Assembly: GCA_963776275.1 (NCBI GenBank)
Contig: CAVZMI010000020.1
Location: 96,001-160,000, forward strand
Direction of reading: 5' to 3'
Source: Ignavibacteriota bacterium
GTDB taxonomy: Bacteria; Bacteroidota; Ignavibacteria; UBA10030; CAVZMI01
DNA length: 64,000 bases
The position numbers were made by a program, and so were the translations under genes. The notes under the pieces were generated by a model, which saw nothing but the letters and a program-made list of their open reading frames with translations, searched no databases and was not told where the DNA came from. Shown here piece by piece: positions 8,832-55,863 of this stretch (its first letter is position 1; every line of letters starts with the position of its first letter).

Positions 8832-11317
8832 ATGCAAAAGCAACGTCTGCATATTGTGATTCGCGGTGCGGTTCAGGGAGTCGGCTTCCGTCCGTTTATC
8901 TATCGCCTTGCCACCGACATGCGCCTCGCCGGATGGGTGATCAATTCTACTCAGGGTGTTCTCATCGAGGTTGAAGGCGAAAGACCTGATCTCGATGAGT
9001 TCATTCTGCGTTTAACGCATGAAAAACCTCCTCGTGCTTTTATCCAGAGTCTGGAGCCGTCACTGCTTGATCCTGTCGGTTTTACATCGTTTGAAATCCG
9101 GGAGAGCGATGACCGGGGTACCCCGAGCGCACTCGTTATGCCCGATATAGCAACATGTCCGGACTGCCTTCGGGAAATATTTGATCCGACAAATCGCCGG
9201 TATCGTTATCCTTTTACAAACTGTACAAATTGCGGACCCAGATTCACAATCATTGAATCACTTCCCTACGACCGGCCTTCAACGACAATGAAGCAATTTA
9301 TCATGTGCGACATGTGCCGGAAGGAATATGAAGACCCGCTAGACCGGCGCTTTCATGCACAGCCGAATGCCTGTCCGGAATGCGGCCCCCACCTCGAACT
9401 CTGGAATATTCAGGGAAATATTACAGCAACGCATTTTGAAGCTTTAAAAACTGCAGCAGAGATGATCCGGTCTGGAAATATTGTTGCCGTCAAAGGACTC
9501 GGAGGATTTCATCTCATTGTCGATGCACGGAACGATGATGCTGTTCTAAACCTTCGCGCCCGTAAACATCATGAAGAAAAACCGTTTGCGGTTATGGTCC
9601 CTTCGCTCGACACCGTAAAAAAGCTCTGTGAGGTCTCGGCACTCGAAGAACGACTTCTCATATCGCCGGAATCTCCAATTGTTCTATTGCAAAAAAGAGA
9701 TGACTATCAAGACTTTCAACTTTCAACTTTCAACCCGAAACTATCGAACGCCGTTTCCCCCGGCAATCCTTATCTCGGCATCATGCTCCCGTATACTCCA
9801 CTCCATCATTTACTCATGAAAGAACTCGGGTTCCCGGTCGTCGCGACCAGCGGAAATCTTTCAGACGAACCTATTTGTATCGATGAACATGAAGCCCTGT
9901 CGCGTCTCCAGCATATAGCCGATGCATTTCTTATACACAACCGGTCCATACTGCGTCATGTCGACGATTCCATTGTACGTATAATGGCAGGCCGGGAGCT
10001 CGTTCTACGACGAGCACGGGGGTTTGCTCCGCTCCCAATTCCAATGCGCGTGTCTGAAATTCCTTCGATGCTTGCAGTCGGCGCCCATTTGAAAAACACC
10101 GTCGCGATCACGGCGGGCAGTAATACATTTATCAGTCAGCACATAGGCGATCTCGAAACACACGAAGCATTGACGGCATTTAAGAATGTGATCGCGAGTC
10201 TGCAGACGCTCTATTCGTTTACACCGACGACAGTAGTGTGTGATGAGCATCCTGATTATCTCTCGACAAAACATGCCCGCAGTATGGGAATCGAGATTCT
10301 TCCGGTTCAGCATCATTATGCCCACATCGCTTCATGCATGGCGGAAAACGAACTGAATGGCAAGGTTCTAGGAGTTTCATGGGACGGAACGGGCTATGGC
10401 CTTGACGGGACAATCTGGGGTGGAGAATTTTTATTAATAGATGAGAACGGATTCAATCGCGTCGCAACGTTTCGTCCTTTCCCTCTTCCGGGAGGCGATC
10501 AGGCAATTCGTGAACCGCGAAGAATCGCCCTTGGAATGTTGTATGCAAAAGCAGGAGACGAAGCATTCAAACAGAACGATCTTGCCTGTATAAAAGCATT
10601 CACACAATCTGAGCTTTCGGTCATTCAGACAATGCTTCAAAAGAAAATCAATTCTCCTTTGACGTCGAGTATCGGACGGCTTTTCGACGGTGTTGCCTCG
10701 ATAATCGGACTTCGACAGCGGACGAATTACGAGGGCGAAACAGCCATGGAACTAGAATTTGCTACGATCCGGCAAGTTACCGATGAATCATATTCTTATA
10801 CTATAGTGGAAGGAAAAACCGATAACCTTCAACCTTCAACTCTCGCCCTGAGCGATCCCGAGCGAGTCCCGCGGTCCGTCCCGAGCGAACCCTGAGCTTG
10901 CTTGCCGCGAGCTCGGTCGAGCGGTCGAAGGGTGTCGAGGGAAGCGGGACGAGTCGAGGGGAAGTCGAAGGGTTATACCTTAAACATCTTTTTTATATAG
11001 ATTGGTTTCCCATGATTGGAGGAATAGTATCTGACCATACTCATGGAATTGCGGTCGGTCATATTTCAACAAAATTCCATAATACATTGACTGAGATTAT
11101 TATTTCCGTTGTAAAAAAAATTCAACAACAACGCGTGGCACTCAGCGGCGGATGTTTTCAAAACAAATATCTTACCGAGAGAACAATCCGGCGTCTTCAG
11201 GAAGAAGGCTTCAAGCCATACTGGCACCAACGTGTGCCGCCGAATGATGGGGGCATTTCGCTCGGACAAATTGCCGCAGCACTTCGACTGAAAAAAGGAA
11301 TTGATAAACTGCATTAA
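8832..11317 (+). CDS. hypF: Carbamoyltransferase HypF, split by a one-base frame break inside a nested palindromic insertion
   Basis: VQGVGFRP acylphosphatase domain, zinc fingers, KGLGGFHL, QHHYAH, DGTGYG; C-terminal ALSGGCFQN and PNDGGISLGQ lie in a different frame (10898-11317). Confidence 0.92.
9712..9742 (+). repeat. Heptamer tandem tract (ACTTTCA)3 inside hypF, in frame
   Basis: actttca actttca actttca acccgaa act, encoding DFQLSTFNPKL. Confidence 0.7.
10842..10972 (+). repeat. Six-layer nested palindromic (REP-like) insertion in hypF
   Basis: Concentric arm pairs such as CCCTGAGCGA/AGTCGAAGGG, TCCCGC/GCGGGA and CCCTGAGCTTG/TCGAAGGG around CCGCGAGCTCGGTCGAGCGG. Confidence 0.85.
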
Positions 11318-15947: not shown

Positions 15948-16027
15948 CGTCATTCCGTTCCGGCTTTTTACCCTGAGCCTGCCTGCCCCGAGCCTGTCGA
16001 GGGGTCGAAGGGTGTCGGGACGGGATC
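15948..16027 (+). repeat. Nested palindromic repeat (three to four layers)
   Basis: cgtcattccgttccggc..[ccctgagcctg[cctgccccgagcctgtcgagggg]tcgaaggg]tgtcgggacgggatc. Confidence 0.8.
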
Positions 16028-45891: not shown

Positions 45892-45949
45892 TCGAAATCC
45901 CGGGGGTGGAGAGATTAATCTTGAATTGCTTTTACTAATTAAAAAGTAA

Positions 45950-46010
45950 CCCTTCGGCTCTCCGCCTACGCTCCACCAGTGCGGAGCTTCGGCGGATCGC
46001 TCAGGGCAAG
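45950..46010 (-). repeat. 61-bp nested palindromic insertion splitting a 19-bp inverted-repeat arm
   Basis: Minus strand cttgccctgagcga[tccgccgaagctccgcactggtggagcgtaggcgga]gagccgaaggg; its removal gives aagtaaaaaggaaaaatta, the complement of 46073-46091. Confidence 0.82.
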
Positions 46011-46109
46011 AAAGGAAAAATTATAAAAGATTAGACGATTTAAAATTGATTGTTATACCACTTTATAATTTTTAATTTTTCCTTTTTACTTAACAACCGC
46101 CTTTGAATA

Positions 46110-47255
46110 TTACTTCTTGACTCCCCTGATTTCTATATCTGAGTTTACGGTCTTTAAATCGATTTGTTGCCCCCCGCCATTAAGAATATACGAACCCCGA
46201 ATTTCATGCTCCTTTTCACTCTTTTCCTCGGATGACGCCTTAAAATCGGACCGGATCGAATAGTCGTTCATCCTCGACTTCCACCGTCCTTCAACACGAA
46301 TACGTGCATCGATTGTTGCCTTTGCATCCTCGGGAATTGAAAGCACCACTCTCCCGCCGGCAGTCGATAGTGTACTGCGATCGTTTCCTTCGGGAATCAG
46401 GTCGACTTCGACATCCCCACCCGCTGTTCTTGCATCCGCGGAACCGGTAATATTATGCAATCTGATATTCCCACCGGCTGTTTTCGCGGTCACAGATAAA
46501 CCTCCCTCAAGAAGCTCGATATCTCCCCCGGCAGTCTTCATCGTAAGCTTGCCGCTGCTCTTCTGTCCTTTAATGCTACCTCCGGCGGTATGAACATCGA
46601 CTGTTCCCCGTACTTCACCAAAAGTAATGTTGCCCCCGGCAGTCGATGCCTTCAAATTCTTACCGACACCATTCACACGAATTGACCCTCCGGCAGTCCG
46701 CAGTGTAGCCTCACCATTGACCCACCCGGTCTCAATATTCCCACCCGAAGTTTTGAGAACAAGATCACCCATGATATCTTTGGTATTAATATCGCCCCCG
46801 GCAGTCTCCATTTCAACGTCGCCGGTCACACTCTCAAGCCGTATGTCTCCACCCGATGTGTGCCCTTTGATTTTTCCTGTCATATTTCCGGCAATAACTA
46901 GATCTCCTCCTGAAGTCTCGATATCGATATCAAATTGTGACGGTACATTGATACGGAAACGGGCGTCGGATGAATGATCGTAAGACCGGAATTGAACATC
47001 GATTTTATTTCCCGACTGGCTCATGCTCAACCCTTCGGCTTCCTCGTCGTCAAGGTTTTCGGCCTGCACATAGACTTCATTTTTCTCCCATGGTTCGATA
47101 CGAATTGAGCCGACATCAGTCGATACGTTCAGTATTCCGCCTTTCTCAACAGTAAATGACTGCGATTTCTTATCGGGTTGGGCGGCAGCAAACAGGAACG
47201 ATGCTGCCAACCCCCATATAAATATTATATGGAATATTGCAGAATGTTTTTTCAT
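46110..47255 (-). CDS. DUF4097 beta-strand-repeat (adhesin-like) protein
   Basis: Repeated T[SA]GG[DNS]I units, signal peptide. Confidence 0.88.
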   Translation of the reverse strand: MKKHSAIFHIIFIWGLAASFLFAAAQPDKKSQSFTVEKGGILNVSTDVGSIRIEPWEKNEVYVQAENLDDEEAEGLSMSQSGNKIDVQFRSYDHSSDARFRINVPSQFDIDIETSGGDLVIAGNMTGKIKGHTSGGDIRLESVTGDVEMETAGGDINTKDIMGDLVLKTSGGNIETGWVNGEATLRTAGGSIRVNGVGKNLKASTAGGNITFGEVRGTVDVHTAGGSIKGQKSSGKLTMKTAGGDIELLEGGLSVTAKTAGGNIRLHNITGSADARTAGGDVEVDLIPEGNDRSTLSTAGGRVVLSIPEDAKATIDARIRVEGRWKSRMNDYSIRSDFKASSEEKSEKEHEIRGSYILNGGGQQIDLKTVNSDIEIRGVKK

Positions 47256-48280
47256 TGTTGTACTCCTTCCAGGAAAGTTGTTGCACGTGCACGTATATAT
47301 ATATTTTCATCGGATTGCATTTTCTTCTGGAGCACCGAAATAACGTCGGAATCGAGCCGGAGTCCCTCGGCCTGTACTCTTGTCAATGCGTTAATGACTC
47401 CGATACGCATACCTGAATTTTTATCTTTCATGAGTACTGTAAGATATGCGTGTTTTACCTGTTCGTCATACGGAAATTTTTGTAACGCTGCTAGGGCTTC
47501 TTTTCGGACTCCGGGATTTTCATCGGTCTCCAGAGCCGTGATTAATGCGCCTCTGATATCTACATCATGTGTGACGGTGGCTGTCGTTTGTGCCGCGAGT
47601 ATATTAGCCGTTTGAAGCCGGGTGCCGGGATTTTGACTGCTCATTAAAGCATAGGCAAGAATTCTCTGTACACGCTGATCGTTGATATTTCCTTTCACAT
47701 GAATCGGCGTGAGGGCATCGAAACTCAGATCGATGAAGCCTTCATTACTCGCCATATCGGAAAATCTCACATTGGTGATCCGCGATCCCGACTGCATCGA
47801 GGAAGCCTTTTCAAACATAATCTCTGTCATGGATCGTTCTGTTGGAACTGGAGGGACAAAAAGAGTGTACCCGAGCACCACACCGATGACAAATACAGCA
47901 ACTCCTCCGAAAACAATACCGACAGGACGGCGAAGCAGTCCTTTAGGGCGGCGAAGCAGTCCTTTAGGGCGGCGAAGCAGTCCTTTAGGGCGGCGGACAA
48001 GACGTGCAATTCCTTCGGTAACCATGCTCACAATAGATTGTTTTGATCGTTCCTCCATTAATGCTGTCCGGAATTGCCGGCGGGCATCCTGCAGCAGTTG
48101 ATTATCGACATCCACTGTCTTTCGCTGAGAAAGGATCTGATTGAAAGCTTTGAGATGCCCGAGCTCTGCCCGGCATCCAGCGCACTCTTTGAGATGCTCG
48201 TCAAGAGTCTCTTGCTGCAGCGGATCCAATTCGCCGTAGAGCGAGAGCAGCAGCCATTCCCGATAGTGATCGTGATTCAT
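47252..48280 (-). CDS. Zinc-finger (zf-HC2) anti-sigma factor with TM and HEAT-like domain
   Basis: HLKECAGC, TM helix, repeated NPGTR/NPGVR/NSGMR helices. Confidence 0.85.
   Translation of the reverse strand: MNHDHYREWLLLSLYGELDPLQQETLDEHLKECAGCRAELGHLKAFNQILSQRKTVDVDNQLLQDARRQFRTALMEERSKQSIVSMVTEGIARLVRRPKGLLRRPKGLLRRPKGLLRRPVGIVFGGVAVFVIGVVLGYTLFVPPVPTERSMTEIMFEKASSMQSGSRITNVRFSDMASNEGFIDLSFDALTPIHVKGNINDQRVQRILAYALMSSQNPGTRLQTANILAAQTTATVTHDVDIRGALITALETDENPGVRKEALAALQKFPYDEQVKHAYLTVLMKDKNSGMRIGVINALTRVQAEGLRLDSDVISVLQKKMQSDENIYIRARATTFLEGVQQ
47928..47995. repeat. Perfect 21-bp tandem repeat x3 in the anti-sigma gene (RRPKGLL x3)
   Basis: cggcgaagcagtcctttaggg x3 plus cggcg. Confidence 0.92.
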
Positions 48281-49094: not shown

Positions 49095-50339
49095 TCAACT
49101 TACATCGAGTCCAATCAGAATTTCAATATCGTCTGTACCTGGAAACATATCGAGAGGAACGGCCTTAGAAGGATAATAGCCCGATTTTTTCCACCGGGAA
49201 AGCTCCTGAGGGATGCGATCGACATCGCAAAAAATATGTACTACCCTTTCCGGCCGGCGTGCGGCGATCGTCTCTATAACTCCCTCCGATGTACCGCCGC
49301 GGGGCGGATCGAGAATAACCGAAAACTGCTGCGGAGCTTTTTGTAAGAGCACCTCCATCGATTCCTGCGTAATATCACGGCGCAAAAATCGGACGTGCTG
49401 CTCGTGCTGCCGGATGGCGTTAGATTTTGCCGCTTCAACCGAAGCACCCGTTATTTCAACTCCGGTCGCCGATGCGACTTTCCCGGCGAAGGAAAGCGCG
49501 AAAAGTCCGTAACCGCAATACAAATCATAAAGATGCATCTCACGGTGAGGCGAGATCAGAGTCTCAACGCGCCTGACCATCTCTTCGACCATCGATTGAT
49601 TGATCTGGGAGAACGATAAGGGCGAATACAGAAAGCTTTTCCCGAGGATCTTCTGATATATTTCTTTCTTCCCGTACACGCGCCGGAACGAATGCTCCTC
49701 TCCTTCGCCGGACGAAAGATAATACCGCGATCGCTTCTCATCGTGATAGAGAAAAATACCTGTAACCTCTTTCACTGCCGCCGTCAGGGCTTTCGACAAT
49801 GCATTAATTTTTTTCAGAACGGCGGGTTCGATCGCTTTGACATTCAGAATAACCGTCAGCTCGGCATAGCTCCCTTTGATGATGACATAATTCAATGCAT
49901 CTGCAAGACGCCGCTCTTTTGCCGTATCGAGAAATTTCTGCACACACGCATACACTCGCGCGTGCGCCTCCGGTTCGATCATACATTGCACGACATCGAT
50001 GGCGCCTGCATGCCCGCCGCCTCTTTGTGAAATGCCGATTAGGCCGAGCCGCGCTTTCCCACGGGATGGAAATACCCTTCGTTTCGTGACAGTACGATAG
50101 AATCGCCCGAGTGACGAAGGAATAATGGAATCGATCGAGATGGGTAGTTTATTCCTTCTCCAGAATTTTTTCAGTACGTCGTTTTTTATACGGAGTTCAT
50201 CGTCATAATTTAGCATCACCGCATGACAGAGCGAACATCGTTTTCCGTAAGGAGTCTGGCATTCACCGTCACGAAGCGCTCGTTGAGGGATGTGCGCTGC
50301 TTGGATGGCTCGCGTGTAACATTCTTCAAAATGGATCAT
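49095..50339 (-). CDS. RlmD/TrmA-like RNA m5U methyltransferase
   Basis: FSQIN, DLYCGYG, LDPPRGG, DMFPGT. Confidence 0.85.
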   Translation of the reverse strand: MIHFEECYTRAIQAAHIPQRALRDGECQTPYGKRCSLCHAVMLNYDDELRIKNDVLKKFWRRNKLPISIDSIIPSSLGRFYRTVTKRRVFPSRGKARLGLIGISQRGGGHAGAIDVVQCMIEPEAHARVYACVQKFLDTAKERRLADALNYVIIKGSYAELTVILNVKAIEPAVLKKINALSKALTAAVKEVTGIFLYHDEKRSRYYLSSGEGEEHSFRRVYGKKEIYQKILGKSFLYSPLSFSQINQSMVEEMVRRVETLISPHREMHLYDLYCGYGLFALSFAGKVASATGVEITGASVEAAKSNAIRQHEQHVRFLRRDITQESMEVLLQKAPQQFSVILDPPRGGTSEGVIETIAARRPERVVHIFCDVDRIPQELSRWKKSGYYPSKAVPLDMFPGTDDIEILIGLDVS

Positions 50340-54928: not shown

Positions 54929-55863
54929 AGTCTTTTATCAATTTTTTATCAATCCACTCGCACTGCAATTCGTCGTTCCCGCAGGTAAACGAGAAGCAAA
55001 AATCTGAGATCCGACGGAAAGTTGAAAAATACTTACTCGGCGTAATATCTTCCGATGATTGTAAAGCGAAATTCTTTTTCCTTTTTTTTTACTTTTTAGT
55101 TTTTACCCCTCTGCTCACCCGACCCATAGAACGGGTCGGATTCGCTCGGGGCAAGCTTTTTTCCCCATCGGCTCGTTCAACCCGGTACCCTTCGATCACT
55201 CGACCCCTCGATAAACTCGGGGCAGGCAAGGTCTCGACAGGCTCGACCCAAGGCTCGCGGCAAGCAAGCTCAGGGCAAGTCATCGGGATTCACTCGGTCA
55301 AGATGTACTTTTTCCTTTTTACTTTTTACTTTTTCCTTTTGTTTTCCGGATGCGCCTCTCTAAAATACCCTTCCTCATATCCGATGACCCGTGAAATTGT
55401 TCGATCACTTCAAGGCGGAATTACGGTTCAAGTTCCTCAGGGATGGTTTAATTCCACCGATGCAAATGTCTCTCCCGGATTGTTACTATGGTTGGTAAAA
55501 AAAGATTATACAGCGGCGATAACATTAACGGAGCTTCACATTGACGAAATCGGAAGCAAACAGGTCATAATTGATGGTCTTGAAACACTAGCCTCAATCA
55601 GCTTTTCATTGAAGAAAGAACGGGTTCAAGAGGGAATACAATTAATCGGGACGTATGAAATATTTACACTGGGTGGAAAAAAATATTGCGCGTATGAATA
55701 TTCGACCGATCAGGGAAAGACTATAGAAAGGGTGATTGTGTTTGGAGGTGTCGGAAAATGGTTCGAACTATCGGCTGTTCCATTCCAAAAAAGAGGTCGT
55801 TTTATCGATCATGAAAGCCTATTCTCCGTCCAAAATTCTCTTCTTAATTCACTTCGTTTTTAA
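54925..55863 (+). CDS. Putative lipoprotein with a repeat-expanded N-terminus (alternative start 55303)
   Basis: Lipobox LFSGC; ATGA overlap with the upstream gene; frame stays open through the nested repeats. Confidence 0.6.
   Translation: MKSFINFLSIHSHCNSSFPQVNEKQKSEIRRKVEKYLLGVISSDDCKAKFFFLFFYFLVFTPLLTRPIERVGFARGKLFSPSARSTRYPSITRPLDKLGAGKVSTGSTQGSRQASSGQVIGIHSVKMYFFLFTFYFFLLFSGCASLKYPSSYPMTREIVRSLQGGITVQVPQGWFNSTDANVSPGLLLWLVKKDYTAAITLTELHIDEIGSKQVIIDGLETLASISFSLKKERVQEGIQLIGTYEIFTLGGKKYCAYEYSTDQGKTIERVIVFGGVGKWFELSAVPFQKRGRFIDHESLFSVQNSLLNSLRF
55106..55302 (-). repeat. Two nested palindromic insertions in a T-rich heptamer tract
   Basis: cccttcga...caagctcagggcaag (55188-55279) encloses cccctcgataaactcgggg, ggtctcgacaggctcgacc and gctcgcggcaag; a second nest lies at 55106-55155. 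Confidence 0.8.

Follow-up and report, generated by a model that had tools for sequence, protein, structure and literature searches.

How does a conserved enzyme gene come to carry six hairpins stacked one inside the other, and is its product still made once they are there? The question is raised by the hydrogenase-maturation gene hypF on a 64,000-nt stretch of an Ignavibacteriota genome, termed the window here (C20:96001-160000 of the source assembly G000, which comprises 3.70 Mb in 38 contigs at 96% completeness; coordinates given without a contig name are those of the window, and other contigs of G000 are written C4, C15 and so on). The nest of hairpins in hypF is a real, lineage-specific DNA insertion, and we put at roughly 55% the probability that the break in the reading frame found there is likewise real and recent, hypF being newly inactivated in this lineage. 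The main comparison was made with a genome of the same genus, G001, of which 876 kb were fetched and about 742 kb aligned to G000. The site and the reading frames are laid out as follows.

10841..10976, + strand: 136-nt replacement of CTTCA of G001 (net +131 nt), with the nest proper at 10842-10972 (blastn against G001; empty forms in peat and metagenome contigs)
10824..10840, + strand: 7-nt tandem patch AACCTTC, 2.4 copies, which hosts the nest (3.6 copies in G001; sequence and G001 empty site AACCTTCAACCTTCAACCTTCAACCTTAAAC)
8832..10895, + strand: hypF 5' reading frame of 687 aa, its TGA inside the nest (list of open reading frames and translation)
10898..11317, + strand: downstream reading frame with a TTG start 2 nt past the TGA, encoding 25 residues from the nest and the C-terminal 114 aa of HypF (HypF_C_2 profile positions 145-241)

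At the orthologous position G001 reads ...CTTCAACCTTCAAC-CTTCA-ACCTTAAAC, the 136 nt of the window standing in the place of CTTCA, and on the two sides of the site its hypF is identical to the window at 322 of 340 and 339 of 353 nt (95-96%). The same empty site is present in a peat-metagenome contig (run X1), which joins 10840 to 10977 via CTTCA, and in the metagenome contig L205, which is G001-like and was the sole match of a metagenome scan with the upstream flank. As run X1 shows this empty form at about 94% identity, it represents a relative and not the source organism. A search for reads of the source organism gave none: four runs came up, sharing at most 0.16 of words, with no RNA run among them and none covering 10842-10943; the right insertion junction gave no match in the metagenome scan, and neither the listed runs nor the metagenome scans yielded an independent copy of the filled site. 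There is no target-site duplication at hypF, where CTTCA is replaced, nor at C15:157783, where a hairpin unit lies between GAGCTTG and TCGA. If the frame break is real, the insertion postdates the split from G001, at a synonymous divergence (dS) of about 0.2, and hypF would be a dated case of such DNA killing a gene that is free of other decay.

The gene is open in frame 0 from 8832 to the TGA at 10893-10895, and its remainder runs in another frame to 11317. All domains of a HypF carbamoyltransferase are found by Pfam, the 5' frame holding Acylphosphatase, zf-HYPF, Sua5_yciO_yrdC, HypF_C and positions 1-144 of the HypF_C_2 profile, and it is the Kae1-like second subdomain (PF22521) that is cut by the frame break, between profile positions 144 and 145; HypF of G001 is encoded by an open, intact frame. 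One base added at any place in 10826-10892, a restoring interval of 67 nt, gives a single hypF open reading frame (ORF), and the 44-aa insert proposed in an earlier interpretation made from the letters of this DNA (the sequence-only reading) follows from the two frames. In the mechanism that we favour, the nest would have landed in an (AACCTTC)n patch encoding a disordered loop of HypF and, with a length one base below a multiple of three, would stop HypF at 10893-10895 and leave its last 114 residues in another frame.

Several observations weigh against a genuine inactivation. Isolated 1-2-nt indels between G000 and G001 (202 over the 742 kb) break a long ORF 64 times in G000 versus three times in G001, so that no single frameshift in G000 is trustworthy, and the large-subunit gene of a [NiFe] hydrogenase is broken in just the manner that recurs at GGWCC motifs of this assembly. 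Five of six other large indels within ORFs were accepted as genic and all of them are multiples of three (177, 156, 129, 21 and 18 nt; three of the five ORFs were judged by length only, and the sixth indel, of 75 nt, was judged intergenic). The nest is free of stops over its entire length in the downstream frame, as would be expected if it were translated, and the adjacent hypA, hypB and hypD are intact. No other decay of hypF, which the sequence-only reading had named as speaking against its own account, was seen among lesions or in the ratio of nonsynonymous to synonymous divergence (dN/dS) from G001, which is 0.163 for the N-terminal and 0.060 for the C-terminal part, with 0.03-0.31 for 18 other neighbouring genes. 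Finally, a donor copy of the full nest is absent from G000, in which two or three layers are the most that any one locus combines.

The best surviving alternative takes the one-base deficit for a long-read consensus error, located at GGTCC or at another position of the GC-rich nest; the insert would in truth be 132 or 129 nt long, and HypF would work with a floppy loop of 44 or 43 residues. In that case the nest shows HypF gaining a loop of 44 residues at a single site, through one event or a few. The excess of ORF breaks in G000 supports such an error, as do the open downstream frame, the in-frame lengths of the other indels accepted as genic and the purifying selection on hypF. GGWCC sites are error-prone: 46 of the 64 ORF-breaking indels of G000 lie at GGWCC sites of G001, and indels occur at 72 of 679 GGWCC sites versus 6 of 1559 control GCWGC sites. 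The clustering most likely reflects methylation-linked errors in the consensus of a long-read assembly, platform and methylation being read from the error pattern itself. One-base consensus errors at methylation motifs are documented, in passages of Wick et al. (2019, PMC6591954), for Nanopore assemblies, where they likewise fall on a short palindromic motif and cause apparent frameshifts in many genes, the motif there being Dcm CCWGG and in G000 GGWCC. Such a site lies within the restoring interval of hypF.

10873..10877, no strand assigned: GGTCC, the only GGWCC site in 10701-11100

This sole error-prone site of the interval still reads GGTCC. A +1 error, the commoner type (29 of the 46 GGWCC-linked ORF breaks, against 15 that are -1), would at this position imply a true insert of 130 nt, out of frame too, and the error required, a -1 that leaves the motif intact, is seen in only 3 of the 15, or 3 of the 46. 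A rough estimate of its frequency, (72/679) x (15/46) x (3/15), comes to about 0.7% for each true site. The coding parts of the assembly have few homopolymer errors, and the sequencing platform on which the argument depends is known from the error pattern only. Because the frame-restoring type of error is rare at GGWCC, the break is judged more likely to be real, and a consensus error at hypF is possible but on the whole improbable. Beyond hypF, the frameshifts of G000 cluster at GGWCC, and genes broken there should not be taken as biology without reads. Example sites of such indels are 60881 and 63942 of the window and C20:289814; the last falls in the coordinates of the frameshifted hydrogenase large-subunit gene (C20:288700-290250, - strand, outside the window), which has an extra G in GGTCC (G001 GGGTCCCG, G000 GGGTGCCCG), with the GGWCC error signature and no repeat. 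A second [NiFe] hydrogenase gene is intact.

A real break would not by itself abolish the enzyme if translation re-initiated at the TTG of 10898 and the two pieces reassembled across a surface loop, if ribosomal recoding took place at the nest, or if a slip of the heptamer patch by plus or minus 7 nt toggled the frame in part of the population. The TGA at 10893-10895 and the TTG at 10898-10900 are separated by 2 nt, the split is located in a loop that is disordered in the AlphaFold model, one more AACCTTC copy, as in G001, would arithmetically bring the net insert to 138 nt and into frame, and the hyp neighbours and the second [NiFe] hydrogenase gene are intact. Against recoding, no slippery heptamer of the form X XXY YYZ was found, read by eye, in the frame-0 codons of 10826-10892, and the nest folds as RNA with no more than ordinary stability (z = -0.75, 42 of 200 dinucleotide shuffles folding as well or better), which together speak against a programmed -1 frameshift site; the heptamer patch, for its part, is merely 2.4 copies long. 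Rfam has no family at the gathering threshold across the window, nor at E <= 1 across 10700-11100. We consider continued production of HypF from a broken gene unlikely, and the inactivation of hypF remains the preferred reading.

The place that the nest occupies in the protein is a permissive one. Alignment of 22 orthologs with both pieces of the window put the insert in a stretch that varies from 0 to about 40 residues in length, which bears out the surface-loop placement that had been suggested as a check. Compared with PDB 3VTH, HypF of G001 has 13 extra residues at the site, encoded by the AACCTTC patch. In an AlphaFold model of the C-terminal 400 residues of HypF from G001 (alignment of 17 sequences; mean predicted local distance difference test score, pLDDT, 85.1; predicted template modelling score 0.87), the insertion point T286/F287 is located in loop 279-290, which connects strands 273-277 and 292-296 and has pLDDT values under 50; the nest is accordingly modelled in a disordered beta-hairpin loop of the Kae1-like domain. 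Alignment and model together support the view that the site tolerates insertions in many relatives. Heptamer-like repeats or hairpins, in frame at the DNA level, are found in the same HypF loop at L006, L009 and L019, which are distant HypF loci from other families of the order, and this suggests that the loop is a long-lived landing pad for repeats. The sequence-only reading had described a loop grown in a working enzyme: the tolerant loop is upheld by the orthologs and the low pLDDT, the working enzyme is not, as the gene is out of frame as assembled.

What landed in this loop consists of six concentric complementary stems, CCCT/AGGG, TCCC/GGGG, TCCCGC/GCGGGA, TCCC/GGGA, CCCT/AGGG and CCGC/GCGG, five of the six hairpins following the grammar YCNN-GAG...TCGA-NNGR and TCCCGC/GCGGGA being the remaining one. 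Measured by an objective rule, from the first base of the 5' stem to the last base of the 3' stem, the layers are these.

10846..10972, + strand: layer 1, hairpin CCCT-GAGC...TCGA-AGGG, span 127 (sequence and nesting parse)
10856..10961, + strand: layer 2, hairpin TCCC-GAGC...TCGA-GGGG, span 106, with a T.G outer pair (sequence; paralogs are CCCC...GGGG with equal spacing)
10867..10949, + strand: layer 3, hairpin of another type, TCCCGC...GCGGGA, span 83 (sequence; un-nested form TCCCGCGGAGCGGGA at C23:88800-88900)
10879..10942, + strand: layer 4, hairpin TCCC-GAGC...TCGA-GGGA, span 64 (sequence and nesting parse)
10890..10932, + strand: layer 5, hairpin CCCT-GAGC...TCGA-AGGG, span 43, whose TGA (10893-10895) ends the upstream frame
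10901..10924, + strand: layer 6, innermost 24-nt unit CTTGCCGCGAGCTCGGTCGAGCGG (a near-identical 24-nt unit at C15:157783 is in G000 only, compared with G001)

The six-layer nest of 131 bp at 10842-10972 that the sequence-only reading had described is thereby confirmed, letters and stems alike, and its units belong to a family of the genome: simple complementary units of the above grammar number 66 in G000 versus 2-9 in five second-order Markov shuffles. By nesting depth, the top-level units of G000 fall into 258 of depth 1, a class that includes chance pairs, 18 of depth 2, one of depth 3 and one of depth 5, which is hypF; it is the sole nest of the assembly with five layers of the YCNN-GAG...TCGA-NNGR type and the deepest in the genome. 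The hypF nest shows to what depth tiny mobile hairpins can be stacked, six layers in a conserved enzyme gene. A smaller nest of the same family lies in the window itself.

15971..16012, + strand: intergenic two-layer nest of the same hairpin family, its inner unit 15982-16004 being 23 nt long

That length had been noted before and was confirmed in the sequence. Over the aligned part, G000 and G001 show 81 differences of at least 10 nt, two of which are clean single-unit differences. One is the 24-nt unit CTTGCCGCGAGCTCAGTCGAGTGG at C15:157783, of the type of the innermost hypF layer, which is absent in G001 and lies exactly between the GAGCTTG and TCGA of an outer unit; the other is a unit of 23/24 nt at C11:14650, likewise in G000 and not in G001. 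Insertion of a single unit into the loop of an earlier unit is thus shown. Parts of the hypF nest recur as composites. A double outer arm (arm-GA-arm) is found at six further places in G000, four of them flanked by 7-nt repeats, and at none in the 876 kb of G001; layers 1 and 2, both sides of them, surround a different inner hairpin at C32, C30 and C23:332, with flanking 7-nt repeats; and the inner pair of layers 5 and 6 recurs at at least four places (C15, C18, C20) and in a 46-nt tandem array on C28. Tandem arrays of hairpin units have periods of 23, 23-24, 32 and 46 nt in G000. Across the genome, a hairpin arm lies within 40 nt of only 19 of the 199 period-7 arrays. A loose census of motif islands and a generalised nest parser, tried on foreign loci, were too noisy, and neither was used. 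Arrays of whole units or of two-layer nests are also seen at C4:18786-18907, C21:6958-7218, C28:91300-91560 and C8:2214-2488, repeating every 23, 32, 46 and about 35 nt.

How the layers came together was the most specific part of the sequence-only reading, which had six single insertions, each a multiple of three, grow the nest with HypF kept functional throughout, and a sequencing error remove one C at 10857-10859. The demonstrated insertion of a unit into a loop and an innermost unit of exactly 24 nt are in its favour, and a base added at 10857-10859 does give one ORF. The near-perfect preservation of the frame by layers of 24, 20, 21, 21, 21 and 24 nt, however, rested on freely chosen boundaries, and shifting these by a few bases suffices in every case to bring all but one of the layers to a multiple of three; under the stem-to-stem rule the layers span 127, 106, 83, 64, 43 and 20 nt and the increments are 21, 23, 19, 21, 23 and 20 nt, two of the six being divisible by three. 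Equating layer 3 with TCCCGCGGAGCGGGA, the empty form at a paralogous locus, turns layer 4 into a canonical unit of 23 nt. Both 23 and 24 nt are natural sizes of the family in intergenic DNA, the latter as the size of the innermost type because the unit at C15:157783 has it there, and the sizes on which a reading-frame filter per layer had been founded vary with the parse and equal those of natural 22-24-nt units in intergenic DNA. The C supposedly missing from 10857-10859 is not missed by the family: six of six paralogs share the spacing GAGCGA-4 nt-GAGC...TCGA-GGGG-R-AG, from which the double arm of hypF departs in nothing but a C-to-T change, the origin of its T.G pair. The intermediate states that stepwise growth would leave, and for which the sequence-only reading had asked as shallower nests, were not found at the hypF site in G001, run X1 or locus L205, all of which are fully empty, and three hypothetical un-nested forms of layers gave a count of zero each. 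There is no layer-by-layer filter on the reading frame, and stepwise in-frame growth with a lost C is highly improbable. Single insertion of a unit into a loop survives from it, as seen at C15:157783; six steps do not, in view of the empty sites and of the composites that recur elsewhere. The earlier interpretation is in sum partly supported, holding for the tolerant loop and for growth unit in loop, and failing for the filter on each layer, for six proven steps and for the lost C.

That the nest is a mis-assembly or chimera absent from the organism, as the many base-level errors and the want of an independent copy of the filled site might suggest, has next to no probability, the block sitting between collinear unique hypF flanks on a contig of more than 300 kb, following the family grammar exactly with six complementary stems, and differing in kind from the observed base-level errors, which are 1-2-nt indels and not insertions of 131 nt.

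In the mechanism proposed for the hypF insertion, new units would insert into the loops of earlier units and into patches of 7-nt tandem repeats, with no visible target duplication; as units enter loops, nests would grow from the inside. Part of the hypF nest probably came as ready-made composites of two or three layers, for which the recurrent pairs speak. The mover of the units could be an enzyme acting in trans upon recognition of hairpins in single-stranded DNA, a guess. A bolder version would make the units substrates of an insertion machinery common to bacterial phyla and aimed at the loops of earlier copies, so that one landing seeds a runaway nest; together with heptamer slips of plus or minus 7 nt, nests would then be reversible frame switches or growers of loops, and hypF would be caught in mid-process, switched off or in two pieces. 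We would give this extension little credence.

The units are in any case not confined to this genome. Exact copies of the core 19-mer CCCTGAGCTTGTCGAAGGG are present in at least 120 contigs from many phyla, with 134 matches among those listed; the contigs (L077-L196) include cultured Microbacterium, Sphingopyxis and Moraxella, and among the matches listed the 19-mer often has ccgttcg before it and pairs with an inverted ggcttcgacaggctcagcccgaacgg. In L129, a metagenome-assembled genome of Candidatus Binatia, six to seven opening arms are followed on the - strand by an equal number of TCGA-closing arms, at about 95-240 nt of the stretch, from which it follows that nests of the depth of hypF exist in other phyla. 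A full-text search of the literature for strings of the hairpin unit found no paper, supplements, which may hold repeat sequences, lying outside its reach, and word searches for nested repeats, heptamer repeats and Ignavibacteria found nothing specific.

By analogy, the hairpin family appears to behave like the small dispersed repeats (SDR) and STRR heptamer arrays of cyanobacteria, and miniature mobile DNA of this kind is already known. Elhai and co-workers are said to have described in 2008 SDR4-6 nested in the heptamer STRR arrays of Nostocaceae, with SDR hairpin units reportedly of 21-27 nt, present or absent between close relatives, devoid of a transposase of their own and occasionally located in genes; embedding in tandem heptamers is reportedly a defining feature of SDRs. 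The family of G000 resembles them in unit size (24 and 23/24 nt, with tandem periods of 23 and 23-24 nt), in the complementary stems of 4-6 nt of all six layers, in the occurrence of copies within copies (20 nests of depth 2 or more) and in presence or absence at orthologous sites (hypF, C15:157783, C11:14650 and further sites in the 742 kb). It is embedded in heptamers at hypF, C32, C30 and C23:332, a likeness in arrangement. The differences are that the host is Ignavibacteria-like and not of the Nostocaceae, and that six layers are nested and, in the assembly, leave the gene out of frame. SDRs of Nostocaceae are cited in passages of PMC3116915 and PMC5861425; according to a passage of the latter they are not found outside Nostocaceae, whereas the core 19-mer occurs in many phyla. 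Mini-hairpins get into protein loops via 7-nt repeat patches beyond cyanobacteria as well.

Membership in other classes of small repeats was considered. The nest does not qualify as a MITE, a class defined by terminal inverted repeats together with target-site duplication, as comparison of filled and empty sites shows no duplication. In yeast mitochondria, mobile GC clusters and byp elements are small GC-rich hairpins that insert into each other and into coding sequence, and byp elements are skipped by the ribosome; the hypF nest shares with them GC-rich hairpins that are nested and lie in coding sequence, and differs in that they are mitochondrial and that there is no sign of bypassing at hypF. 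The Rickettsia palindromic elements (RPE) are described in part of PMC10969869 as palindromic selfish DNA in protein-coding genes, translated as an extra peptide where the fold tolerates it. Like them the nest is palindromic DNA within a protein-coding gene, but RPE, on that description, are single, about 150 bp long, code for a peptide that is conserved, and are seldom out of frame, compared with six units of 20-24 nt out of frame in hypF; membership is ruled out by the composite block, its net 131 nt, not a multiple of three, and the lack of a full-length paralog. REP/REPIN elements are mobilised by RAYT (Y1 HUH) transposases, as stated in passages of PMC3116915 and PMC3733652, and are similar in being short GC-rich hairpins in many copies; G000 has nine Y1_Tnp matches. 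Units of the hypF type, in contrast, lack a GTAG/CGTC tag, are not confined to intergenic DNA and are nested rather than paired, and a REP/REPIN-RAYT element was excluded given arms of YCNNGAG and TCGANNGR devoid of that tag and the location within a gene.

Further repeats and indels of hypF and its surroundings complete the picture. The gene contains one more heptamer patch.

9712..9734, + strand: second 7-nt repeat patch in hypF, ACTTTCA in 3.3 copies, read through in frame (TRF, ORF test and sequence)

The protein of G001 has this patch too (...FQLSTFNPKLSN...). Intergenic nests at 45936-46084 and 55087-55156, with 7-nt flanks of the AAAAAGG/TTTTTCC type, are absent in G001; the 75-nt indel at 55087-55156 looked intragenic at first and was counted as intergenic, upstream of a lipoprotein start. 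In-frame hairpin nests do occur in genes of this genus. A tRNA (uracil-5)-methyltransferase-like gene (49095-50339, - strand) is empty at 50009-50019, where a nest of 129 nt lies in frame in the G001 ortholog, built from a different hairpin family of the TCCGCC/GGCGGA type. At C20:92928, 3 kb before the start of the window, G000 is without the four tandem 39-nt GC-rich units (156 nt, in frame) that are found in a 1086-nt ORF of G001. A zf-HC2/HEAT anti-sigma-like gene (47252-48280, - strand) carries at 47933-47954 a 21-nt in-frame insertion relative to G001, of 20 + 1 nt and GCCGCCCTAAAGGACTGCTT-like.

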